Shown here: positions 2,987 through 60,442 of the stretch, in pieces
Layout: each line of letters begins with the position of its first letter
How positions within the stretch are numbered: position 1 is the stretch's first letter
Assembly: GCA_002691145.1 (NCBI GenBank)
Contig: NZHE01000026.1
Location: forward strand, 114,546 to 178,545
From: Rickettsiales bacterium
Lineage (GTDB): Bacteria > Pseudomonadota > Alphaproteobacteria > Methylaequorales > Methylaequoraceae
Direction: 5' to 3'
DNA length: 64,000 bases
Translations under genes and position numbers: made by a program
Notes under the pieces: model-generated
What the model saw: the letters and a program-made list of their open reading frames with translations, nothing else
The model's database searches: none
Told to the model about the DNA's origin: nothing

Positions 2987-3063
2987 TGGTAGCGGAGGAG
3001 GGACTTGAACCCCCGACACGCGGATTATGATTCCGCTGCTCTAACCACCTGAGCTACTCCGCC
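2987..3063 (-). tRNA. tRNA with CAU anticodon (elongator tRNA-Met or tRNA-Ile2 with lysidine); 77 nt with encoded CCA
   Basis: Reverse complement GGCGGAGTAGCTCAGGTGGTTAGAGCAGCGGAATCATAATCCGCGTGTCGGGGGTTCAAGTCCCTCCTCCGCTACCA folds as a cloverleaf: 7-bp acceptor stem, D-loop AGCTCAGGTGGTTAGAGC, anticodon loop AT-CAT-AA, T-arm GGTTCAAGTCC. Anticodon stem lacks the three G-C pairs of initiator tRNA. Confidence 0.9.
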
Positions 3064-13911: not shown

Positions 13912-15162
13912 ATGAATAAGTCCTTTCTAGAATATCTTAATCAAAGAGGTTTTTACAATCAATGTACAAATTATGAAAATTTTGATTTGTCACTAAAAAA
14001 ACCTTTAGTCGGATATGCAGGTTTTGATTGCACAGCCGATAGTTTGCATGTTGGCTCATTAGTTCAAATTATGTTATTAAGGGCTTTTCAAAAATTTGGA
14101 CATAAACCCATAATTCTTTTAGGCGGAGGAACTTCATTAATTGGAGACCCTTCTGGGAAAGATGAGACAAGAAATATTTTAAATATAAAAACTGTAAACT
14201 ATAATAAAAATAAATTATTGTATCTCTTTAAAAAGTTTATCAATTTCGATAAATCAAGAACTGGTGCAATTCTTGTAGATAATTTTGATTGGATAAAAAA
14301 GATTAATTATTTAGATTTTATAAGAGATATTGGTAGTCAATTTTCTGTTAATAGGATGTTATCATTTGATTCCGTGAAGCTTAGACTTCAAAGAGAACAA
14401 AATTTAAGTTTCTTAGAGTTTAATTACGTTTTAATTCAATCTTATGATTTTCTAGAACTATATAAAAGAATGGAGTGTACTGTTCAATTTGGAGGTTCTG
14501 ATCAATGGGGAAATATAGTATCTGGTATTGAATTGATAAAAAAAAAAAAAAATCAAGAAGTTTTTGGCTTAACCTCACCTCTAATAACAACATCGAATGG
14601 GGGAAAGATGGGAAAAACAAATCAGGGGGCGGTATGGTTGACCTCAGAAAAATTAAGTCCATACGAATATTGGCAATTTTGGAGAAATACTTCAGATTCG
14701 GATGTAATTAGGTTTCTTAAATTATTTACTGAGTTACCAATAGAACAAATAAATAAATTTCAGGAGTTGAAAGGTAAAGATTTGAACGAGGCAAAGATTT
14801 TACTTGCAAATGAGGCTACCAAAATTTGCCATGGAGAAAATAACTCAACAAAAGCATATAATTCTTCGATTAAAATTTTTAATAACAACCAAATTGATGA
14901 ATCAATTCCAGAAAAAAATATTTTTAAAGTTGACTCGAATTATTTAAAAGATGGTTTTATTTTAAAAGAAGCACTTATAAAAATTAATTTTTCAAATTCT
15001 AATGGAGAATCAAAAAGACTGATAATAAATGGTGGAGTAAGGATAAATAACATTAAAATTTCAGATAAGGATTATAAGATAACTGAGTCTGATTTTGGAG
15101 AAGAAAAGAAGATAAAAATTAGTGTTGGTAAAAAAAAATACGGTCTGATAACAATTAATTAG
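13912..15162 (+). CDS. tyrS: Tyrosine--tRNA ligase
   Basis: 'HVGS' (HIGH) and 'KMGKT' (KMSKS) motifs, C-terminal S4-like domain. Confidence 0.9.
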   Translation: MNKSFLEYLNQRGFYNQCTNYENFDLSLKKPLVGYAGFDCTADSLHVGSLVQIMLLRAFQKFGHKPIILLGGGTSLIGDPSGKDETRNILNIKTVNYNKNKLLYLFKKFINFDKSRTGAILVDNFDWIKKINYLDFIRDIGSQFSVNRMLSFDSVKLRLQREQNLSFLEFNYVLIQSYDFLELYKRMECTVQFGGSDQWGNIVSGIELIKKKKNQEVFGLTSPLITTSNGGKMGKTNQGAVWLTSEKLSPYEYWQFWRNTSDSDVIRFLKLFTELPIEQINKFQELKGKDLNEAKILLANEATKICHGENNSTKAYNSSIKIFNNNQIDESIPEKNIFKVDSNYLKDGFILKEALIKINFSNSNGESKRLIINGGVRINNIKISDKDYKITESDFGEEKKIKISVGKKKYGLITIN

Positions 15163-22069: not shown

Positions 22070-22888
22070 CTACTTATCCATTTTCCATTTAAAATAATTA
22101 TCAATTCCATTGTTTATACTATCAATTATTTTTTCATGGTAATTATTTTTAACTAAAAGTTCTGCATCTTTTTTATTTGAAAGGTATCCCATTTCAATCA
22201 AAACTGAGGGAATATCAGGAGCCTTCAAAACTGCAAAACCTGCGAATCTATGTGTCCTTTGTAACAGTTTTGTTCTAATTCTAAATTCTTTGATAAGGAA
22301 ATCAACAAAATAACTCGATTGATTCATTGTTTCTCTTTGAGTTAAGTCAATTAAGATATTTGCAACCTCTTTTGATTCTAAACTTAAATCTAATCCTTCA
22401 ATTAAATCTGACTTATTTTCTCTCTTTGCAAGAGCTTCTGCTTCTTTATCAGATGCTCTTTCAGATAAAGTATAAATTGAAACTCCACTTACATTTTTGT
22501 TTCTATGAAAATCAGCATGAAGTGAAATAAATAAATCAGCTTTATTCTTTCTTGCAATTTTTACTCTATCCCTTAGTCTTAAATATCTATCCCCCTGCCT
22601 AGTTAAGATAACTCTATAATTTTTATTCTTCTGCAATCTTTTTTTAAGTTTTTTTGCAACCACTAAGGTGACATCTTTTTCCAATATTTTTCTAACACCA
22701 ATGGCACCAGAATCTTTTCCACCATGACCAGCATCAATGATAATTATCTTTTCTCTAACATTCTTTTCATTGTTTATAGATTTTTCTTTAAGAGAAAAAT
22801 CTATTACGATTCTAAAATCTTTAATACTATTTTTTTTTATCGAATAAAGATTCTTGATTTGAATCTCTTTTTTAAAGATAATGGTCAC
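22070..22888 (-). CDS. N-acetylmuramoyl-L-alanine amidase (Amidase_3 catalytic domain); N-terminal part lies out of frame upstream
   Basis: 'IIIDAGHGGKDSGAIG', 'SLHAD', 'VLIEMGYLSN' Amidase_3 signature. ORF in the track starts with GTG. Confidence 0.85.
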   Translation of the reverse strand: MTIIFKKEIQIKNLYSIKKNSIKDFRIVIDFSLKEKSINNEKNVREKIIIIDAGHGGKDSGAIGVRKILEKDVTLVVAKKLKKRLQKNKNYRVILTRQGDRYLRLRDRVKIARKNKADLFISLHADFHRNKNVSGVSIYTLSERASDKEAEALAKRENKSDLIEGLDLSLESKEVANILIDLTQRETMNQSSYFVDFLIKEFRIRTKLLQRTHRFAGFAVLKAPDIPSVLIEMGYLSNKKDAELLVKNNYHEKIIDSINNGIDNYFKWKMDK

Positions 22889-22983
22889 TTTTTTTTCGTT
22901 AGAAAAAAAATCAATTTTTTCTACATACTCTGTATTGTACTTTTTTTTTGAAATATTTTTGAGATCTTTAAAAAAAATTAATT

Positions 22984-23244
22984 CTAATTTTTTTTATAAA
23001 TAAGAGATTTAAATTTTACATCATTTGATATATCTAAAACAATTCTGTTAACCTCATTTTTTTGACCAAACCTAATGTCTTTTATTTCAAACGCTGATAA
23101 ATTATTAAAGCAATTGAAAAAAAATATTAAAAATATTAATTTAGAAAAAAAATACAAATTACAACAAAATTTTGTTACTATACAACATATAGTAAAATTA
23201 GAATAAAAAAAAACAATATCTTTGATTTTTTTAAATTTTTTCAA
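22984..23244 (-). pseudogene. Signal-peptide + AMIN-domain N-terminal fragment of the amidase, separated from the catalytic ORF by a frame change in an A/T homopolymer region
   Basis: 'FSKLIFLIFFFNCFNNLSA' signal-like h-region, then 'IKDIRFGQKNEVNRIVLDISNDVKFKSLIYKKN*' (AMIN beta-strand pattern). The downstream frame opens 6 nt after this stop and contains the second AMIN-like segment '...KDFRIVIDFS'. Confidence 0.5.
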
Positions 23245-23314: not shown

Positions 23315-25483
23315 ATGACAAAAAAAATGCTAATAGATGCAAATCAGCCAGAGGAAACAAGAATGGCTATAGTTGAGGGGGAAAAACTTTTAGAATATGA
23401 ATCTGAAGTATTAAATCTTAAACCAATTAAAGGAAATATTTACTTAGCTAAGATAATAAGGGTAGAACCATCTCTTCAAGCAGCTTTTGTGGACTATGGG
23501 GGACAAAGGCATGGATTTTTAGCTTACAATGAAATTCATCCTGATTACTTCAAAATTCCAACTTCCGATAAAGAAAAATTATTAGCTGCTGAAAATGAGA
23601 TGACATCTAATTACAATCTTGAAGAAGAAAGCATCGTTGTAGAAGAAGAATCAGAATTAAAAAATAAAAAAACCAAAATAAAAAATAGTTCAAACAAAGA
23701 TAAAAAATCTTTTTTAGAAAAAATTTTAAATTTTTTCAATTATAGTCCCATTGATGACGAGGAAATAATTTCCAAAAATGAGTTTTATAAGAAAAAAAAA
23801 AATAAAAAGCAAAGTCAAAATAAGATTAGAAATTTTTCTATTCACAGAAGATACAGCATTCAAGAAGTAATAAAGAGAAACCAGGTTATACTTATACAAA
23901 TAGTAAAAGAAGAGAGAGGCAACAAAGGTGCAGCTGTTACAACACGCTTATCTTTAGCTGGAAAGTATTGTGTATTAATGCCAAATACGAATAAAGGTGG
24001 AGGAGTATCAAGAAAAATTACAGATTTAAAACTAAGAAAAAATTTAAAAAATATTTTAAGTTCGCTAGATATTAAAAACGGAATTGGAGTGATAATCAGA
24101 ACCGCAGGTCAACTAATGAACAAAGCTCAAATTAATCGAGATTACAAAGCTCTTTTAAAGCTTTGGAATGATATCACCTCAAAAACTATTAAGTCTACCG
24201 CGCCATCCTTAATTCATGAGGAAGGAAATTTATTAAAAAGATCTATAAGAGACTATTTTTCAAATGATATCAGTGAAGTAATAGTAAATAACAAAGATGT
24301 ATTTAAAAATGCAAAAGAAGTAATGAAAGCTTTTATGCCAAGTCATATTAAGCAAATAAAAATGCAAGATAAATCAGAAAATTCACTATTTGGAATCAAT
24401 AAGATTGAAAAACAGGTTAATGAAATTTTCAAACCTGTAGTTTATTTACGATCAGGTGGATATCTAGTAATCAATCAAACTGAGGCTTTAGTTGCAATAG
24501 ATGTTAATTCCGGAAAATATACAAAACAAAGAAATATTGAAGATACAGCATTGAAAACAAATTTAGAAGCTGCTGAAGAGATTCCTTTTCAATTGAGGTT
24601 AAGAGATCTTGCTGGTTTAATCGTAGTTGACTTTATTGACATGCTTGAAAGATCAAATAATTTTAAAGTAGAAAGAAAAATCAAAGAATCTGTAAAAAAT
24701 GATAGAGCAAGAGTGCAATACGGAAGGATAAGTAATTTTGGTTTGTTGGAAATATCTCGTCAAAGATTAAAACAAGTGATTAACACAACAACTTCTCATA
24801 AATGTCATCATTGTAATGGAACAGGAAGAATTAACTCGATTGAGTTTACCGCAATGCAGATTCTAAGAGTTTGTGAAGAAAGCTTAATTAATACAACTTT
24901 TAAAAGTTTAACAATACTAGTTAATAATGAAGTGGCGAATTTCATAAACAACAAAAGGATTAAGTTTTTAAATGAAATTATAAAAAAGACAAGACGAAAA
25001 ATTTACATAAAGGAATATGAAGATTTTTCTACTTCTGAGTCAGCTATTTTTAATAAACAAGAAATTATATACGAGAATTGTGATGATGAACAAAAATTAG
25101 CGAGTGCGGCAAGTCATTTGGAATTTATCAGTCAAAAATTTACCAAAAATAAAACCCGGTCCTATGGTCTTGAGAAGTTAGATGAAAAAAAAGAGAATGC
25201 AAAAATGCAAAATGAAAAATCATCTAAAAACTTAAAAAATATCAAAAACAAAAAATCTTATGAGAAAAAACAAAATGAAGATACAAAAACTTCCGAAGTT
25301 TCTGAAACTAACGTTTCAAGTTTAAAACAAAAAAGAACAAGTTTTAGGGCTAATGCAGAGGATTTTACAAAAGTAAATAAAAAAAAAATAAGAGTTAAAA
25401 AATTAAAAGATGTATCAAAATCTAATGTTAAAAATGAAGCTTTATTAAATACGGAAAAAAGAGAGGGATGGTGGAATCAATAG
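23315..25483 (+). CDS. rne: Ribonuclease E/G family endoribonuclease (RNase E, short alphaproteobacterial form with S1-domain insertion)
   Basis: S1 domain 'GNIYLAKIIRVEPSLQAAFVDYGGQRHGFL', catalytic region 'IDVNSGKY', Zn-link 'CHHCNGTGRI', lysine-rich C-terminal tail. Confidence 0.85.
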   Translation: MTKKMLIDANQPEETRMAIVEGEKLLEYESEVLNLKPIKGNIYLAKIIRVEPSLQAAFVDYGGQRHGFLAYNEIHPDYFKIPTSDKEKLLAAENEMTSNYNLEEESIVVEEESELKNKKTKIKNSSNKDKKSFLEKILNFFNYSPIDDEEIISKNEFYKKKKNKKQSQNKIRNFSIHRRYSIQEVIKRNQVILIQIVKEERGNKGAAVTTRLSLAGKYCVLMPNTNKGGGVSRKITDLKLRKNLKNILSSLDIKNGIGVIIRTAGQLMNKAQINRDYKALLKLWNDITSKTIKSTAPSLIHEEGNLLKRSIRDYFSNDISEVIVNNKDVFKNAKEVMKAFMPSHIKQIKMQDKSENSLFGINKIEKQVNEIFKPVVYLRSGGYLVINQTEALVAIDVNSGKYTKQRNIEDTALKTNLEAAEEIPFQLRLRDLAGLIVVDFIDMLERSNNFKVERKIKESVKNDRARVQYGRISNFGLLEISRQRLKQVINTTTSHKCHHCNGTGRINSIEFTAMQILRVCEESLINTTFKSLTILVNNEVANFINNKRIKFLNEIIKKTRRKIYIKEYEDFSTSESAIFNKQEIIYENCDDEQKLASAASHLEFISQKFTKNKTRSYGLEKLDEKKENAKMQNEKSSKNLKNIKNKKSYEKKQNEDTKTSEVSETNVSSLKQKRTSFRANAEDFTKVNKKKIRVKKLKDVSKSNVKNEALLNTEKREGWWNQ

Positions 25484-34040: not shown

Positions 34041-35186
34041 ATGCAACAAAGAAAAAATCTAGAAATTTCATGTGTTAAGAGTGTAACTGAAATTCCAAAA
34101 AGTACTTGGAATATGCTCTCAAAGAATAATATTTTAACTGATTATGACTTTTTTCATGCGCTCGAAATAAGTCAGTGTACCTCTGATAAAACAGGTTGGA
34201 TTCCAAATCATATCGTTTTTAAACTTGATAAAATAGTTGTAGCTATAATTCCTACATTTAAAAAATTAAATTCATTTGGAGAATATGTTTTTGATCATTC
34301 ATGGGCAGATGCTTATCACAGAATGGGAATTAATTATTATCCAAAACTTTTAACTGCAATTCCTTTCACACCTATAAATACGGACAAAATTCTTGTAAAT
34401 AAAATTTATGTTGAAAGATTTGACGAAATTATAACTAAGCTCAGAGAATATTTATTAAGTTATAATCTCTCATCTTACCACATAAACTTTATTAATTTAA
34501 AAGATTCTGATAAATTAAAAAATTTTAATTTTTTTCAAAGAACAGGCATACAATATCATTGGAAAAATAATCATTATTCCAATTTTAATGATTTTTTATC
34601 CGAGTTCAGATCAAAAAAAAAAAAAAATATAGTTAAAGAAAGGAATTATCTTATTAAAAATAAGATCAAGATTTCCCAATTAATCGGTGATGAAATTTCA
34701 AAGGATGATTTAAATTTTTTTTACAAATGCTATTCTAATACCATTGAAAAAAAATGGTCACAAAAATATCTTAATTTGAATTTTTTTGAAAATATACTTA
34801 AATCTAATCTCAAAAAAAAAATACTATTAATCACAGCTAAAGATAATGATGAAAATTATTTAGCCTGTTCACTAAACTTTATAGATAAGGACAAATTAAT
34901 TGGAAGATATTGGGGTTGTCAGAATGAGATTCCTTTCCTTCATTTTGAACTTTGTTATTATCAAACTATTGATTTCTGCATTAAAAATAATATCAACCTT
35001 ATAGAAGCAGGAGCGCAAGGTGAACATAAGATTGCCCGAGGTTATAGACCAACACTCACATTTTCAAATCATTGGGTAAATAACAAAGTAATGGAGGAAC
35101 CTATTGCAAATTTTTTGAGTCATGAGAACAAAGTAATAAAAAGAAATTTATCTTTTTTGAATAATTACCTTCCTTTTAAAAAATAA
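34041..35186 (+). CDS. FemAB-like/BioF2-like GNAT-fold N-acyltransferase family protein (DUF482-type)
   Basis: 'HFELCYYQTIDFCIKNNINLIEAGAQGEHKIARGYRPTLTFSNHW' matches the conserved C-terminal block of this family; 381 aa. Confidence 0.5.
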   Translation: MQQRKNLEISCVKSVTEIPKSTWNMLSKNNILTDYDFFHALEISQCTSDKTGWIPNHIVFKLDKIVVAIIPTFKKLNSFGEYVFDHSWADAYHRMGINYYPKLLTAIPFTPINTDKILVNKIYVERFDEIITKLREYLLSYNLSSYHINFINLKDSDKLKNFNFFQRTGIQYHWKNNHYSNFNDFLSEFRSKKKKNIVKERNYLIKNKIKISQLIGDEISKDDLNFFYKCYSNTIEKKWSQKYLNLNFFENILKSNLKKKILLITAKDNDENYLACSLNFIDKDKLIGRYWGCQNEIPFLHFELCYYQTIDFCIKNNINLIEAGAQGEHKIARGYRPTLTFSNHWVNNKVMEEPIANFLSHENKVIKRNLSFLNNYLPFKK

Positions 35187-41895: not shown

Positions 41896-42369
41896 ATGAC
41901 TAAAAGTAAACTTTTATATTTTGTTAGTGAGGATAAATATTTTCTAACTCACAAATTATCGCATGGTTTAGCTGCATTAAAAAATGGATTCGATGTTTTG
42001 GTCATTTGTAATATTTCTGTCTATAAAAAAAAATTAGAGACATATGGCTTTAAAGTATTAAACTTTCCATTTAACAGAAAGAGTATCAATCCTATTAAGG
42101 AAATAATTTATGCTTTTAAATTTTTAAGGATATTAAATAAGGTTAAACCAGATATAGTCCAATGTATTGCTTTAAAACCAATCTTATATTTTATTATTTG
42201 TGAATTTTTTTATAAATTTAGTGTACAAAAAATTTTCGCAATTGTTGGATTAGGATACATCTTCATTAATAAAAATTTCAAAACTAAATTTCTTAAGTTT
42301 GTTTTGCTAAATATGATTGCATTTTCATTGAAAAAAAAAAAACTCTATAGTTGTTTTCCAAAATATTGA
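41896..42369 (+). pseudogene. Glycosyltransferase family 4 (GT1-fold), N-terminal half; interrupted within an A12 homopolymer (42331-42342)
   Basis: GT4 N-domain pattern. The frame terminates 27 nt after the A-run, while the downstream ORF's frame is open back to the A-run ('KKKNSIVVFQNIDDMNYF...'). Confidence 0.6.
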
Positions 42370-42373
42370 TGAC

Positions 42374-43033
42374 ATGAATTATTTTTTACAAAGAAGAATT
42401 GTTGAAAAAGATAAAGTTTTGATAATTCCTGGGTCAGGTGTAAACACTAGCTATTTTAAACCAAGAAATGTAGCAAAAAAATACGACTTAATTTTACATT
42501 CAAGAATGCTAATTGATAAAGGAGTTGTCGATATAATAACAGCTTTACAAATTTTGCAAAAAAAAGAAATATTTTTAAAAACGCTTTTTTTAGGAAACCC
42601 AGATTATAACAATTTAGCCTCGATTAAGACTAATGAATTAAAATTGTGGAATAAGCAAAAACTTATAGTTTGGATTCCAGAAAAAAAAAAAATTTTAAAA
42701 TATATATTACAGTCTAGGATATCGATACTTCCTTCTTTAAGAGAGGGATTTCCAAAGAGCTTACTTGAAGCCGCAAGTTGCGGTCTACCCTTGATTTCTA
42801 CTGACGTTCCTGGTTGTAGAGAAATTTGTATAAATAATTATAACGGATTATTAGTAAAAAAAAATAACCCTCAAGATTTATCTATAGCTATAGAACGTCT
42901 TATAAAAAATAAAAACAAGTTAAAAACTTTTGGATACAACAGCAGAAAACTTGTTGTTGAAAATTTTTCGGATAAAATTATTTCTAAGCAATTTTTAAGT
43001 TTATACAATACAAGAGCTAAAAAAGTCCTTTGA
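42374..43033 (+). pseudogene. Glycosyltransferase family 4, C-terminal half (continues the upstream ORF after the +1 frame change)
   Basis: 'EGFPKSLLEAASCGLPLISTDVPGCREI' GT4 C-domain signature (E-x7-E region). Confidence 0.6.
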
Positions 43034-45165: not shown

Positions 45166-45825
45166 ATGAAATCATTAATTAAAAATACAAACGATATTAT
45201 ATCAAAAAAAACCGCTAAAATATTAATTAATATTGGTTCAATAAATTTTAGTCCTAATAAACCGTTTAAATTAACATCTGGAAAATTTAGTCCTGTATAT
45301 TGTGACTGTAGAAGGATAATTTCATTTCCAAAAGAAAGAGCAAAACTAATTAATTTTGCTACGAAAAAAATTAAAAATGAGTCTTTTTTTAATAAAATAA
45401 CAAATATTTCAGGCGGAGAAACCGCTGGAATACCTTTTTCAGCATTAATCGCTTCAAAACTAAATTTACCAATGACATACATTAGAAAAGAAAAAAAAAA
45501 ATTCGGAAAAAAAGAACAAATTGAGGGAATTTTAAATGAATCTGAAAACGTGATACTAGTCGAAGATTTGATAACTGATGGGGGTAGTAAACTAAGTTTT
45601 ATAAATGCGTTAGAAGAAAAAAAAGTAAAATTAAGAGCAATATTTGTTATTTTCAATTATGGTATTTTTTTCAATAAGTTCCAACACAAAAACAAATCAA
45701 TTAAATTAATACACCTAACAACATGGAAAGACGTAGTTCAGATGGCATTTTCGATGAATAAAATAACTTTAAAGGAAAAGAAAATTATTAACGATTTTCT
45801 AAAAGAAATAGGAGTTAAAAATTAG
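45166..45825 (+). CDS. pyrE: Orotate phosphoribosyltransferase (long-form)
   Basis: PRPP-binding motif 'VILVEDLITDGGS', 'FKLTSGKFSPVY' OPRTase N-terminal region. Confidence 0.7.
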   Translation: MKSLIKNTNDIISKKTAKILINIGSINFSPNKPFKLTSGKFSPVYCDCRRIISFPKERAKLINFATKKIKNESFFNKITNISGGETAGIPFSALIASKLNLPMTYIRKEKKKFGKKEQIEGILNESENVILVEDLITDGGSKLSFINALEEKKVKLRAIFVIFNYGIFFNKFQHKNKSIKLIHLTTWKDVVQMAFSMNKITLKEKKIINDFLKEIGVKN

Positions 45826-46624: not shown

Positions 46625-46817
46625 TTATATCATTCGATTTCAGTGTATATATAGCCCAATCTTTCTTTTTAATTAAATTTTTATTAACAGCAACAGCAAT
46701 ATTTTTTTTGTTGAAGTTAGGAATTTTTGTTTTCAATAGAAGACCTAAATTCGGAATGTCCGTATAAAAAAAACTAATTTTTTCTTCGTTAACAGTTAAT
46801 TCTATTTTTTCTTTCAT
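46593..46817 (-). CDS. thiS: Sulfur-carrier protein ThiS
   Basis: Small ubiquitin-like ORF ending in Gly-Gly ('...VTPFPGG'), between thiO and thiG. Confidence 0.8.
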   Translation of the reverse strand: MKEKIELTVNEEKISFFYTDIPNLGLLLKTKIPNFNKKNIAVAVNKNLIKKKDWAIYTLKSNDIIEIVTPFPGG

Positions 46818-47098
46818 AATTTTTTTTTTAAAAACCTTGTTGGCGACAAACTTTGATTAATTTTTTTGCCCATGATTACATCATATACTAATTCAGCTGT
46901 TATTGGTGATAAAAGTACTCCATGTCTATAATGACCAAAGGCACAAATAATGCTTTTTGATATTTCATCTATTGTGCCGATAATTGGAAGCCCGTCGTAA
47001 CTTGCAGGTCTCAAACCAGAATTTAAACTTTTAATTTCAAGTTCTTCTGTAAAAGGTAGCGATTCTTTTAAATTTTTCACCAAAAAAAAAAATTTCAT
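46814..47098 (-). pseudogene. thiO: Glycine oxidase ThiO, C-terminal segment (separated from the N-terminal part by a frame change in a T11/A11 homopolymer at 47082-47092)
   Basis: 'GLRPASYDGLPIIG...AFGHYRHGVLLSPITAELV' = ThiO/DAO C-terminal signature. Removing one T from the run joins it in-frame to the upstream ORF. Confidence 0.65.
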
Positions 47099-47918
47099 CT
47101 ATATTAATCCCTGATTTAAACCCTCTATCATCCTCAGTAGCTCCAACCATAATCTCATTGTCATCTCTTGGTGCTATATAAATATTTCTAAACCACAAGT
47201 TATGAGTAATTTTTTGATTATTGTTACAACTTAAATTTAATGAAACCCCTTTTAGAGGTTTCGATGAAATATTTATTGAGAATGAACGTTTTAAAACTTT
47301 TTGACTCCAAGCTCCCGCAGCTAAAATAATTTTATCGGAATAAAATTTTTCACCATCATAACTCACACCAACTTTTTTATTTTCAAAAATTATTTTTTCA
47401 ATATTTTTATTAATAATTTTTCCTCCATTTTTTAAAAAACAATCTTTCAAACACATTTTCAAGTTTATTGGATTAACCTGATCTTGTGATTTACAATATA
47501 GTGAACCTTGAACATTATCATTTAAATTAGGTTCAAATTTTAAAGTCTCTTCTCTATCTAAAAAGTCAATATTTTTACCGAGTTTCAAGAAAAATTTTTG
47601 TTTAAACTTTAATCTCTGTAAATCATCAAAATTATTTGCAACCATTAAGGCAGACGTCTTTTTAAAATTAATTTCAAGACTTGAATGTTCACTTATTTTT
47701 TTAGCATATTCTTCCCACTTTTTTTTTGAGAGTTCTAATAAATTGAATAAATCTTCCTCTGAGGGTTTAGCTTCTATTATTGGTGCTAACATTCCTACAG
47801 ACGCTAGACTAGATTCTCTTGAATCATCATAATTAAATATTGTTACTTCAAAACCATTCGTTATAAGTTTAAATCCAATTGATAAACCTATCAAACCTGA
47901 GCCAATTATAAAAATCAT
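47037..47918 (-). pseudogene. thiO: Glycine oxidase ThiO, N-terminal FAD-binding segment
   Basis: 'MIFIIGSGLIGLSIGFKL' dinucleotide-binding motif, '...YIAPRDDNEIMVGATEDDRGF'. Confidence 0.65.
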
Positions 47919-54338: not shown

Positions 54339-55301
54339 ATGAAATATTTTAAATATATATTAACTTTAGTAGTCTTTTTTTCTTTTGATCTAAGCTTTGC
54401 ACAGAACAAAATTAAAATTGGTACCCTTCAATATGGGAGTGTCAATTGGGAGCTTGAACTCATTAAACAATTATCACTAGACAAAAAAAATAACATTAAT
54501 GTAGAAATTGTTCAGCTTGCAAGTAAGAATGCGGCAGCTGTAGCACTTCAAGGTAATGCTGTTGATTTGATTGTTACTGATTGGTTTTGGGTCTCAAGAC
54601 AAAGAGCTTTAAACAGAATGTTTTCCTTTGTACCTCATTCTATGGCCGCGGGTGGGCTTATCGTAGATGAGAACTCAGGTATTCAGAGTATTGACGATCT
54701 TAAAGGAAAAAAAATTGGCATTGCTGGCGGCCAAGTAGATAAAAGCTGGTTGATATTTAGAGCTTTCTATCAACAAAAATTTGGTAATGATCTAATAAAT
54801 GAAACAAAACAAATTTTTGGAGCTCCACCATTGCTTAACAGAAAGATAGAGCAAGGTAGTTTTGACGCCATTTTAACATATTGGCCTTATCAGGCTAGAT
54901 TACTCTCAAAAGGATTTGTAAAAGTGATAAATGTTAATGATATTATCAAAAATTTGGGAATAAACAGTAATATGCCAATAATCGGATGGGTATTTAGGGA
55001 TGAATGGGCGCAGGAAAATCCAAATTTATTAGAAAACTTTATAAATACATCAAATGAAGCCAAAGAGTTGATGTTGAAAAAAGATGAAGTTTGGGAAAAT
55101 ATCAAGCCCATTATGAAATCAGAAAATGATAAAGTTTTCAATAATCTTCGTGATATTTATCGCGAAGGCATACCAAGAAATTTTGGTTCATCCAATGTAG
55201 ACGGCGCATCAATTCTTTATAGTACTCTTTCTGAAATTGGTGGCAAAGCTCTTGTTGGAAACTCAAAGGAAATTGCCCCAGGAACATTCTGGTTAGAATA
55301 A
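54339..55301 (+). CDS. ABC transporter periplasmic substrate-binding protein, NMT1/SsuA/TauA family (sulfonate/nitrate/taurine or pyrimidine-precursor type)
   Basis: Signal peptide, type-2 PBP fold with 'GKKIGIAGGQVD' segment characteristic of the family. Confidence 0.7.
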   Translation: MKYFKYILTLVVFFSFDLSFAQNKIKIGTLQYGSVNWELELIKQLSLDKKNNINVEIVQLASKNAAAVALQGNAVDLIVTDWFWVSRQRALNRMFSFVPHSMAAGGLIVDENSGIQSIDDLKGKKIGIAGGQVDKSWLIFRAFYQQKFGNDLINETKQIFGAPPLLNRKIEQGSFDAILTYWPYQARLLSKGFVKVINVNDIIKNLGINSNMPIIGWVFRDEWAQENPNLLENFINTSNEAKELMLKKDEVWENIKPIMKSENDKVFNNLRDIYREGIPRNFGSSNVDGASILYSTLSEIGGKALVGNSKEIAPGTFWLE

Positions 55302-55302
55302 C

Positions 55303-56052
55303 ATGAAAATTTTTTCCAATAGTACTAGCCTAAGGCTTTTATCCTTATTGGCTTTCCTCTCTTTATGGTATCTAGTAAGTTTCTTAGTTGATAATTCACT
55401 GTTACCTAGTCCCTCAAATGTTTTGATAAAAATTAACGATGAAATTAATGCTAATGAATTATTTAAGCATACAGGCATTACTCTTAGAAGAGTATTCTTA
55501 TCATTTAGTATTGCAATGATAATAGGTGCAGCCATTGGAATATTTATGGGAAGAAGAAAGAAGATTAATGACTTTTTCGATGATTGGTTAGTTTTAGGAT
55601 TGAATGTTCCAGCTTTAGTTATCATTATTTTATGTTATGTTTGGTTTGGGTTGAATGAATCTGCAGCAATTTTAGCAGTTTCCTTAAATAAAATACCAAT
55701 GGTTGCTGTTATTATGCGGGAAGGCTCTAGATCCATTGATGAACAATATATCGATGTAGCAAAATTTTATAATATTAGTAAAAAAAAACTTTTTTATAAA
55801 ATAATTATACCACAACTATATCCATATCTAATGTCTGCAGCTCGGTCTGGATTGTCCCTAATTTGGAAAATAGTTCTAGTTGTTGAACTGTTGGGAAGAA
55901 GTGATGGAGTAGGTTTTAAATTATACGGTCTTTTTCAATTTTTTGATATAAGTGGAATCCTAGCCTATACTTTTACATTTGTTGCAGTAATAATATTTGT
56001 TGAATTTATTTTTGTAAGACCCCTTGAAAGAAAGTTAACATTATGGCGTTAA
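55303..56052 (+). CDS. ABC transporter permease (BPD_transp_1; SsuC/TauC-like)
   Basis: Six TM segments and the 'EAA-like' loop region; follows the SBP. Confidence 0.75.
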   Translation: MKIFSNSTSLRLLSLLAFLSLWYLVSFLVDNSLLPSPSNVLIKINDEINANELFKHTGITLRRVFLSFSIAMIIGAAIGIFMGRRKKINDFFDDWLVLGLNVPALVIIILCYVWFGLNESAAILAVSLNKIPMVAVIMREGSRSIDEQYIDVAKFYNISKKKLFYKIIIPQLYPYLMSAARSGLSLIWKIVLVVELLGRSDGVGFKLYGLFQFFDISGILAYTFTFVAVIIFVEFIFVRPLERKLTLWR

Positions 56053-56055
56053 AAA

Positions 56056-56808
56056 ATGAGTATTTCTATTAAGATCAAGGAAAAATTTTTTCTAAGCAAG
56101 GATAAACAAGAGAAGATAGTTGCTCTCAGAAATATTAACACAAAAATTAAATCAAAAGAATTTGTATGCATTGTTGGACCATCGGGATGTGGTAAAACAA
56201 CTCTAATGAACTTAATTGGAGGATTGGTGGCGTCTAATGACTCTGAAATTTTAATTAATGAACAAGAACTTAGTTCAAAAAATTCTTTAGGTTATGTATT
56301 TCAAACATCAAGATTAATGCCATGGCTAAATCTTTTCGAAAACATAAAATTGGTTTGTAATGACTCAATAGATTCAGAAAAAAAAATAAAGGAAATACTA
56401 GAAAATTTTGAACTTTCAGAATTTTTAAATGCATTTCCAAGTACCATATCCGGTGGTATGAGACGAAAAGTTGCATTAGCCCGAGCTTTTGTGAATAGCC
56501 CAGAAGTACTATTAATGGACGAACCATTTGTTTCTTTGGATCAACCAACAACTGAAAACTTATATAAGGTACTCATTGACTATTGGGAAAAAATGCCTAC
56601 AACTGTAATCTTTATAACACACGTTTTAAAAGAGGCTCTTTTACTAGGAGATAGAATTTTGTTTTTTACCAAAAGACCTGGAACCATAGTATTAGACTAC
56701 AAAGTAAAATCAAAGCGCTCCCCATTAAAAATAGACAATGATGAAGTTGCAAAAGAATATGATGCTCTGAACAAAAAGTATCCAAGTCTGTTAAAAGGAA
56801 TTCTATGA
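56056..56808 (+). CDS. ABC transporter ATP-binding protein
   Basis: Walker A 'GPSGCGKTT', signature '[14 protein letters not shown]', Walker B 'LLMDEPF'. Confidence 0.9.
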
Positions 56809-58247: not shown

Positions 58248-59004
58248 CATGTCGAATTTAAAAATAGCATTTTTGGCATTAAACTTTTCTATTTTATGTC
58301 ACATTTTTTTTATCTTATTACTTCTTGAAAAAAAAAGTAGTGAAAAAAAGTACGCTGTAGTTGATCTTTCAAATTTCAGTAAATTTCAAACAATCAATAT
58401 CAAGAAAAAAGAAAAAATTGATAATACGAAAAGCTCAGAAAAAAAAAAAAATAGTGATAACAAAAAAACATTACAAAAAAATTTAGAAACCTCAAAGCAA
58501 GAACCAAAAAAAGTAATAAAAAAAAATGATTTAACTTATCCAAAAGTTGAAGTTTTAAAAAAGCCTGAAAAAAAAAATCCATTTTTTGAAAAGGAAAAAG
58601 ATGTAGAAGAAAATGAAAAAAAAAAAAAAGAGAAGACTTTTGATAGTAGCGATGAATATCAGAAACAAAGTTCAGCTGCCAAAGAATTATTAATTATTAA
58701 AGATAAAGCCCTTTATAACTATTTAAAACAAATATCTACTGAAATTAATATTTTAGCAAATAAGGCATATCCAAAGCGTTCAATTTTAAGAAGAGAACAA
58801 GGAAAAATTTTGACGAGAATTACCATTGGTTATTCAGGAGAGGTAATAAATATACAAATTTTAACAAAAAGACCGAAAAACTTAGCAAAAAGTGCTGAAA
58901 AGATATTAAAACAAAGAAATAAACTTCCAGCGCCACCTGAAATTTTAATCAAAAATTCTAAAAGTATAGTTGTTGAGATACCTATAAATTATATTCTCAA
59001 GTAA
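58234..59004 (+). CDS. tonB: TonB-family energy transducer
   Basis: N-terminal TM anchor, Lys/Glu/Pro-rich spacer, C-terminal TonB_C-like 'YPKRSILRREQGKILTRITIGYSGEVINIQILTKRP...LPAPP'. Confidence 0.7.
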   Translation: MKIYDMSNLKIAFLALNFSILCHIFFILLLLEKKSSEKKYAVVDLSNFSKFQTINIKKKEKIDNTKSSEKKKNSDNKKTLQKNLETSKQEPKKVIKKNDLTYPKVEVLKKPEKKNPFFEKEKDVEENEKKKKEKTFDSSDEYQKQSSAAKELLIIKDKALYNYLKQISTEINILANKAYPKRSILRREQGKILTRITIGYSGEVINIQILTKRPKNLAKSAEKILKQRNKLPAPPEILIKNSKSIVVEIPINYILK

Positions 59005-59049: not shown

Positions 59050-59128
59050 ATACAGAATATTATGTTTAAGAAAACTTTATTATAATGTAAAAAGAGAATA
59101 CTATTAACAATAATTAAGGGAGGGAAAA

Positions 59129-60442
59129 TTGAATAAATTTTCTAAAAAAATCGCTGTAGCCGCAATACCTGCTGTTATGGCCCTTTCTGCATCTGCTGTC
59201 GACTCAAAACAACTTCTAATGAGTGAAGGTGGCTGGGAAATATCGTTTGATGGTGCAGCAAACGCATTTTATAACGTGACTAATTCTGATGCTACCAACG
59301 ATGCAACATTCGCTGGTGCTAATACTGTAACAACTTTTGAAACTGCAGGTGATTTCATTGCAAGTGATGGAGCTCAAACAAGTTCTATTTCTGTTGGTTT
59401 ATTACCTAACGTTTTTGGTTTTACCATAAAAGCCCCAACTTCTAATGGACTAGATGTTTCAGGTAGATTAGGTATTTATACACACATGAACGCAGATGGT
59501 TCTTCTGCTGCTAGTAACGCACCTAATATGCGTGAAACTAGTTTTACAGTTGCTGGTTCATTTGGTTCTATACTTGCCGGAAGACATTTAGGTCTATGGC
59601 AAAGAAAGGCTATCGTAAACGATGTAACACTCTTTGGCGTTGGTGGTACGGCTGGTAACATTACAGGAACCACATTAGGTAGAATTGGTTCTGGTTATGT
59701 TTACGCTGACTGGTACCCTCAAATTCAATGGACACTTCCAACAATGGGTGCTGTAACTGCTACTGTAAGTTTACTTCAGGCCACACCATTGATTTCCACA
59801 ACTGCTAACTATGGTGCGACTGAAACAGCAACTCCAAGAGTTGAAGTTTTAATTGACGCTAATCACTCTTTCGGTGGAGCTGACATTAACTTCTGGCTTG
59901 ACGGTCAATTTCAAGAGTTAGAGAGAACAACAACCCAAACTACTACTGTTAGAGCTGGAGCAACAGCTTATAATGGTGCTAGCACTGATGAGGCTGATGC
60001 AATAACTGCATACGGTGTTGGAGCTGGTGCAAAGATTACTGTAGGTAGTTTTGATTTAGTAGCTTCCTTTTTCAAAAACCGTGGAGTTGGTATTCAGTTC
60101 CAAGGTAATACAGGTGGATCAACTTACTCAGGTGCACTTGACGCAGTTGGAAAAGCTAGACACTTCTACGGTGGATACATCCAAGCACATGCTGATCTCG
60201 GTGGCGGAACTAATGCCGCTTTCTCGTACGGTCAAAACAAAGCTGTAGCTACTGGTAGTGATATCGAATCACTCACTGTTGCCGAAAGAAATACAGTTGA
60301 ACATTGGAATGGAATGCTTTGGCATAACTTAACTGATGATTTCAGAGTCATCGCTGAAGGTTCTTATTCTGAACAAAGTCTACACATGGGCGGTAGCCAA
60401 GATTCAACAAATGTTTCTCTTGGTGCTTTCTTCTTCTGGTAA
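59129..60442 (+). CDS. Major outer-membrane porin-like beta-barrel protein (Ala/Gly/Thr-rich, C-terminal aromatic)
   Basis: Signal peptide 'MNKFSKKIAVAAIPAVMALSASA', alternating amphipathic beta-strand pattern, ends '...SLGAFFFW'. Strong SD AAGGGAGGG before the TTG start; higher GC and biased codon use suggest high expression. Confidence 0.7.
   Translation: MNKFSKKIAVAAIPAVMALSASAVDSKQLLMSEGGWEISFDGAANAFYNVTNSDATNDATFAGANTVTTFETAGDFIASDGAQTSSISVGLLPNVFGFTIKAPTSNGLDVSGRLGIYTHMNADGSSAASNAPNMRETSFTVAGSFGSILAGRHLGLWQRKAIVNDVTLFGVGGTAGNITGTTLGRIGSGYVYADWYPQIQWTLPTMGAVTATVSLLQATPLISTTANYGATETATPRVEVLIDANHSFGGADINFWLDGQFQELERTTTQTTTVRAGATAYNGASTDEADAITAYGVGAGAKITVGSFDLVASFFKNRGVGIQFQGNTGGSTYSGALDAVGKARHFYGGYIQAHADLGGGTNAAFSYGQNKAVATGSDIESLTVAERNTVEHWNGMLWHNLTDDFRVIAEGSYSEQSLHMGGSQDSTNVSLGAFFFW

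Follow-up and report, generated by a model that had tools for sequence, protein, structure and literature searches.

One-base A/T homopolymer miscalls as the probable cause of three frameshifts in an AT-rich alphaproteobacterial MAG contig

Within a 64,000-nucleotide stretch of an alphaproteobacterial MAG contig (hereafter the window), three genes are each split into two open reading frames (ORFs) at a long A/T homopolymer. Have the cells lost these genes, or does the deposited consensus misreport them? The genome has a G+C content of 29 per cent and many long A/T tracts. The original prediction, made from the letters of the window, described three single-base frameshifts in 64 kb at A/T homopolymers; this description holds once the run in one of the genes is corrected. 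We consider it probable (about 80 per cent), on the strength of near-identical assemblies, that the three frameshifts are technical one-base A/T homopolymer miscalls in the consensus of the MAG contig and not mutations of the living genome.

The glycine oxidase gene thiO (46814..47918, minus strand) is divided into an ORF of 293 aa (47037-47918), which ends in ...INIDEIFFFGEKFKRIATFYRRT followed by a stop, and an ORF of 94 aa in the +1 frame (46814-47098), which carries ...GLRPASYDGLPIIG...AFGHYRHGV. As had been predicted from these ORFs, the break coincides with a T11 run in the sense strand (A11 on the plus strand, 47082..47092), where the minus strand reads ...GGGATTAATATAGATGAAA-T11-GGTGAAAAATTTAAAAG (GATGAAA-T11-GGTG); the frame of the 293-aa ORF enters the run and stops 15 codons on. 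Compared with the NCBIfam equivalog model TIGR02352, the longer product matches positions 1-273 (176.2 bits) and the shorter one positions 279-351 (68.5 bits), both below the cutoff of 250.8 bits, and because these matches cover consecutive parts of the model, the two ORFs represent one gene cut at the tract. With T10 in place of T11, a single ThiO of 367 aa results. The T10 ThiO of near-identical contigs scores 257.3 bits against the same cutoff and matches model positions 1-351 of 351, in agreement with the claim that removing one T restores a glycine oxidase of about 370 aa. On its own strand, thiO is immediately followed by the genes for ThiS (PF02597) and ThiG (PF05690), which completes a thiO-thiS-thiG context.

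The GT4 glycosyltransferase gene (GT; 41896..43033, plus strand) encodes Glyco_trans_4_2 plus Glycos_transf_1, now on separate ORFs of 157 aa (41896-42369) and 219 aa (42374-43033), respectively. The two ORFs, together with the A11 allele of most relatives, bear out the predicted break at a run of 12 A (42331..42342) that is one base too long: with the majority allele A11 the gene reads ...SLKKKNSIVVFQNIDDMNYF... and yields an intact product of 378 aa, as in the relatives. The gene contains two further poly-A tracts, one of them also A12 (42681..42692), which is in frame here and codes for PEKKKILKY, and the other at 42856-42864.

The third gene encodes an N-acetylmuramoyl-L-alanine amidase (Amidase_3, AmiA/AmiC-like; 22070..23244, minus strand), split into ORFs of 86 aa (22984-23244) and 272 aa (22070-22888). 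Its break lies within the range given in the prediction, but the run responsible is a sense A8 at 22988..22995 (T8 on the plus strand) and neither the A8 at 22970-22977 nor the T9 at 22941-22949. A three-frame reading of the junction gives YKKN and a stop in one frame, and a stop followed by KKLELIFF in the other. Relatives have A9, read YKKKLELIFF... without interruption, and encode an intact amidase of 391 aa. The amidase therefore does not repeat the pattern of the other two genes, as had been supposed: its run is one base too short (A8 versus A9), whereas those of thiO and GT are one base too long. Neither does the AMIN domain attributed to this gene find support. Amidase_3 is the only Pfam match at E ≤ 0.01 (residues 168-383), the AMIN domain (PF11741) giving no match at that threshold, and the NCBIfam models AmiA, AmiC, and AmiB match the catalytic domain only, far below their cutoffs.

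To place the window, we looked up its split products by exact sequence. They are NCBI proteins named 'MAG: hypothetical protein CMM91_10585 ... 10730 [Rickettsiales bacterium]', and the window is part of a MAG contig of 215,087 bp, in which it spans the locus tags CMM91_10585 to CMM91_10730. The same look-up returned the thiO pieces of 94 aa and 293 aa as MAI85383/4, the GT pieces of 157 aa and 219 aa as MAI85377/8, and the 86-aa amidase piece as MAI85356; all of them also occur as OUV529xx. From the style of the accessions and locus tags, and from near-identical contigs of Tara origin, we infer that the MAG comes from the Mediterranean Tara Oceans assemblies of Tully et al.

The window was compared with 33 loci from 20 other assemblies, which were reached via the neighbouring intact FTHFS, PBP1A, 307-aa protein, HscA, and ThiS. 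The set is made up of MGnify Megahit assemblies of single Tara runs, Tara scaffolds, one JGI assembly, Logan per-run contigs, other ENA assemblies, and 2 single-cell genomes. Over positions 2934-64000, the 20 assemblies are 99.77–99.97 per cent identical to the window, and against them the window's own coding indels are limited to those in thiO, GT, and the amidase gene, with shifts of +1, +1, and −1, respectively. The in-frame length is found in all other assemblies that could be scored for thiO (T10, 6/6) and the amidase (A9, 10/10), and in 8/10 for GT (A11); the T11 and A8 of the window recur in none of them (0/6 and 0/10). Additionally, in all places listed among 22 contigs with an identical ThiS, a complete gene encodes a ThiO of 367 aa; a third single-cell genome and an unrelated run belong to this group. 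The three single-cell genomes are GCA_902525415.1, GCA_902615335.1, and GCA_902538015.1. In a clustered collection of about 15 billion proteins, three of the split products (293 aa and 94 aa from thiO, 86 aa from the amidase) are each confined to one contig, the window's own. Judged from these assemblies, the real population is shown to carry T10 in thiO, A11 in GT, and A9 in the amidase gene, with all three genes intact.

The intactness of all three genes in near-identical independent assemblies, together with the confinement of the thiO and amidase products to one contig, upholds the preference of the prediction for sequencing or assembly error over real pseudogenes. The converse case, in which the relatives are wrong and the window is right, is rejected on account of the full-length family matches of the relatives and the deviation of the window in both directions (+1, +1, −1).

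More distant orthologues, whose comparison had been suggested alongside the prediction, are in frame as well as the near-identical relatives (8/10 for GT). Specifically, the single-cell genome SAG AG-896-A16 ('uncultured Alphaproteobacteria', an unclassified alphaproteobacterium; L034) has in-frame orthologues of ThiO (49 per cent identical) and GT (53 per cent amino-acid identity). At the site of the thiO tract it has no run and reads ATGTTTTATTTA, and its GT keeps LKKKN and an in-frame 12-A tract. This genome supplies the best FTHFS match among the matches listed (81 per cent), which do not include the window's own species. In the same matches, FTHFS is only 62–64 per cent identical to Pelagibacteraceae, no nearer than to Rhodobacterales, and the label 'SAR11-like' that had been applied to the window is therefore unsupported and doubtful. 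Other searches added nothing to the set. A search of genome contigs with the intact ThiO protein gave no confirmed relative, and neither a variable-gap pattern over the thiO tract nor a fixed 35-mer beside it had a match among JGI metagenome contigs, a collection that apparently lacks the contigs in question; the variable-gap pattern does match L001-L006, one of which is a JGI contig.

If the breaks are miscalls, how are such errors distributed? We took a census of every A/T run of at least 5 bases over all assemblies and counted minority-length calls by majority length. There were 0 such calls among 8,054 at run lengths of 5-8, 4 among 273 at length 9, 2 among 142 at length 10, and 6 among 76 at length 11 or more. 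Minority calls thus climb with run length, and they depend on run length alone; 3 of the 12 are in the window and the remainder are distributed over six other assemblies. All coding indels of the whole set sit in A/T runs of at least 9. Because A/T runs of at least 8 make up only about 1,100 of the 64,000 bases (1.7 per cent of the window), the location of 3/3 indels in them is not due to chance (P-value ~5e-6). From these counts, roughly 1–2 per cent of A/T runs of 9-10 and about 8 per cent of those of at least 11 are miscalled even in Illumina assemblies of AT-rich marine genomes.

The minority calls of the other assemblies include one in an essential gene. In tyrS, A15 is shortened to A14 in 2/8 other assemblies (L010 and L014; 2/9 with the window), which splits the gene into 184 + 219 aa. 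In an abundant population, most cells cannot do without a working tyrosyl-tRNA synthetase. At least the tyrS calls must therefore be technical, and they look exactly like those of the window. The minority calls strike any gene that contains a long run, whatever its importance. Further ones include a change from T10 to T11 in the ugd run of another assembly, one from A13 to A14 in a TonB-like gene (L024), one at the 5' end of cysE, and one in an intergenic run.

Nucleotide substitutions in the same assemblies behave differently. The 219 SNP variants comprise 107 synonymous, 73 nonsynonymous, 39 intergenic, and 0 nonsense changes, versus a composition-matched neutral expectation of 50, 146, 14, and 10, respectively; the SNPs are under strong purifying selection. 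Among indel sites, 8/9 are coding frameshifts, and 94 per cent of runs of at least 9 are coding. The coding share of the indels is therefore the same as the coding share of long runs, which indicates that the indels are not filtered by selection. One further indel (~59114-59117) is intergenic and precedes the ribosome-binding site (AGGGAGGG) of an ORF at 59129. Its alleles are AATTA-AGGG and AATCATAGGG, the insertion is common to 5/8 assemblies, and in the aligned assemblies it is linked to nearby SNPs. Unlike the homopolymer miscalls, this indel looks like a real haplotype polymorphism.

The history of the source material suggests how such miscalls could have arisen. The Tara metagenomic libraries were sequenced on Illumina instruments after 12 PCR cycles (PMC5538240). 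On Illumina, the error at mononucleotide runs increases exponentially as the run gets longer, and PCR, whose stutter is biased towards −1, makes it several times worse (PMC4417121), and the fraction of reads with the true length falls with each PCR cycle (PMC11878640). If the source DNA of the window took this route, both amplification and sequencing would be expected to yield 'stutter' reads of lengths n−1 and n+1 at A/T runs from about 9 bases upwards. In the pipeline of Tully et al., Megahit contigs of each sample are clustered at 99 per cent with CD-HIT-EST (0.99) and cross-assembled with Minimus2 (PMC5507172; PMC5769542). The text of these papers does not describe a read-based polishing step, and the word 'polish' is absent from the 2018 text (PMC5769542). 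Because no such polishing is described, a path or contig of minority length could have been frozen into the deposited consensus; the step that fixed it was presumably either the path choice of Megahit or the Minimus2 consensus. Since the MAG is attributed to an Illumina project, the platform is unlikely to have been 454, Ion Torrent, or nanopore, to which the original prediction had assigned the errors.

The window shares several features with PCR and Illumina homopolymer stutter in unpolished metagenome assemblies. Its single-base indels are confined to runs that are A/T tracts of at least 9 in the true sequence, and across the assemblies such indels become steeply more frequent in longer runs, as described for stutter (PMC4417121; PMC11878640). 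Across the assemblies they also show no sign of selection, affecting essential genes such as tyrS equally. As expected of sporadic errors, independent assemblies do not reproduce the alleles of thiO (0/6) and the amidase (0/10), a resemblance that is only partial for GT (2/10). The likeness fails in one respect, as 2/3 of the errors in the window are +1, whereas PCR stutter favours −1. This direction and the recurrence of the GT A12 in two other assemblies speak against an artefact, and the recurrence could mean that the GT tract is really unstable.

The explanation that survives best beside miscalling is real slipped-strand heterogeneity, in which A/T tracts mutate fast and the assembler caught real minority or locally common lengths. 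We regard it as unlikely overall, and nearly all of the likelihood that it has belongs to GT. Its most likely form is an on/off contingency switch of a surface-glycan enzyme at the GT poly-A tracts; glycosyltransferases are classic phase-variable genes. The A12 allele is present in the window, in L019 (ERZ17173334), and in L020 (MDTB01014356.1), which gives 8 A11 versus 3 A12 with the window included. L019 carries A12 on nearly the SNP haplotype of the window and L020 on a different one, whereas L008 has the haplotype of the window but A11. With at least two SNP backgrounds involved, A12 arose more than once, and this repeated origin fits recurrent error, of which it is equally expected, as well as it would fit a truly unstable tract. 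The GT gene of L020 also has an A9 shortened to A8. The second long tract of the gene is frameshifted on two further ENA contigs, where the product P0025 (273 aa) ends in ...PEKKKNFKIYITV, a peptide from which the tract on those contigs would be A13.

The numbers also give a weak hint of instability that is specific to the GT site, as its A11 tract has 3/11 minority calls and two other A11 tracts (23792-23802 and 45491-45501) have 0/19. The retention of LKKKN and of a 12-A tract in the orthologue from AG-896-A16 likewise counts in favour of this reading. Against slippage in living cells, the alleles of thiO and of the amidase each turn up only once, and essential tyrS, whose disruption cannot be the majority state in living cells, is equally discordant (2/9). 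Comparison with the phase-variable glycosyltransferase loci of Campylobacter, Haemophilus, and Neisseria is similarly divided. For GT only, the window resembles these loci in having a poly-A tract in the 5' half of a GT4 gene and two tract lengths among assemblies of different backgrounds. It differs from them in that housekeeping tyrS and ugd, as well as thiO, are equally discordant here, and in that its tracts, known from assemblies alone, are ordinary Lys-codon runs of a genome with 29 per cent G+C.

Taken to its full extent, such heterogeneity would make the three GT4 poly-A tracts hypermutable contingency tracts. Through them a marine alphaproteobacterium that is free-living and streamlined would turn its glycosyltransferase for surface polysaccharide on and off, for example in defence against phages. 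More broadly, A/T tracts of 9-15 bases would constitute standing frameshift heterogeneity that is buffered by transcriptional slippage. This larger proposal is unlikely, somewhat more so than slipped-strand heterogeneity in general. Housekeeping tracts of similar length are discordant to an extent comparable with the GT tract.

Less probable still is the real loss of thiO, GT, and amidase in one sub-lineage, possibly with partial rescue by RNA-polymerase slippage on U11/A12. A or T runs of at least 9 are known sites of transcriptional slippage in bacteria, and rescue by slippage is documented for poly(A) frameshifts in the AT-rich endosymbionts Buchnera and Blochmannia (PMC5009743); the low G+C content of the genome and its many long tracts would suit such a reading. 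The window and the endosymbionts have an AT-rich genome, A/T runs of 8 to 12, and intact orthologues in common. The endosymbiont frameshifts, however, are backed by sequencing of the organism itself, whereas the thiO and amidase frameshifts of the window are absent from near-identical relatives, and the GT A12 is present in 2/10. None of the other assemblies, single-cell genomes, or Logan contigs retrieved has the thiO or the amidase allele of the window, and the nearest species among the matches listed lacks the thiO tract altogether, reading ATGTTTTATTTA. Three inactivations in 61 kb at about 0.1 per cent divergence from intact relatives would imply dozens genome-wide, and because this misfits the strong purifying selection and the 0 nonsense changes among SNPs of the same population, fixed pseudogenes are unlikely. 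Programmed recoding, in which the breaks would be conserved, functional +1/−1 ribosomal frameshift or slippage sites, has the slippery homopolymers at the junctions as its only point in favour and can be excluded, because the out-of-frame arrangement is not conserved in near-identical relatives (in frame in 8/10 for GT) or in the orthologues of 49–53 per cent identity, with L034 lacking any run at the position of the thiO tract.

Miscalling, our preferred reading, has consequences for the use of the MAG. The deposited annotation presents thiO, GT, and amidase as pairs of 'hypothetical proteins', and a metabolic reconstruction from it would wrongly infer an auxotrophy for thiazole (thiamine) and impaired cell separation. 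Neither thiO nor amidase should be counted as lost in metabolic inference from this MAG, and pseudogene counts in AT-rich marine MAGs should not be taken as biology without read-level checks. The value of the result lies mainly in quality control, as miscalls reach essential genes such as tyrS. A further locus is relevant to any reading of thiO 'loss' as auxotrophy: an NMT1/ThiY-like binding protein, an ABC permease, and an ATPase are encoded at 54339-56808, about 6.4 kb from thiO-thiS-thiG, and this system may serve the uptake of a thiamine precursor.

Several genes of the window contain even longer tracts that are in frame and have the same length in most assemblies. These are Lys runs in the sense strand of tyrS (A15, 14538-14552), of a FemAB-like gene (A15, 34613-34627), and of the TonB-like gene (A13, 58439-58451, and A14, 58616-58629). 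At this length, poly-A tracts should make RNA polymerase slip and ribosomes slide, in-frame tracts included. The window has nine A/T runs of at least 11, each of them A on the plus strand, T runs reaching a maximum of 10. Eight of the nine are sense Lys-codon runs in plus-strand genes, and in minus-strand genes the sense A runs do not exceed 10; this strand bias may reflect chance plus gene content.

For a marine bacterium with 29 per cent G+C, the population is clonal to an unusual degree, at 99.8–99.97 per cent identity across many Tara and unrelated samples and in contigs of 215–250 kb (the window and L001-L033). Similarity to the relatives ends at ~2934-2987, to the left of a tRNA-Met gene (2987-3063). 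The relative contig L030 (ERZ17173334) ends at ~2934-2987, as would k127_400459 by coordinate offset, and L029 runs on past the tRNA-Met boundary into other small genes, one of them an Adhesin_E-like ORF. Positions 1-2987 of the window look like a strain-variable island adjoining tRNA-Met. At the opposite end, a rhodopsin gene (PF01036; 62994-63689) is the only member of its cluster inside the window. To its right, L021 (12489-18699) encodes polyprenyl synthase, phytoene desaturase, phytoene synthase, lycopene cyclase, and a BCD-family protein (PF15461), which together form a carotenoid/retinal cluster.
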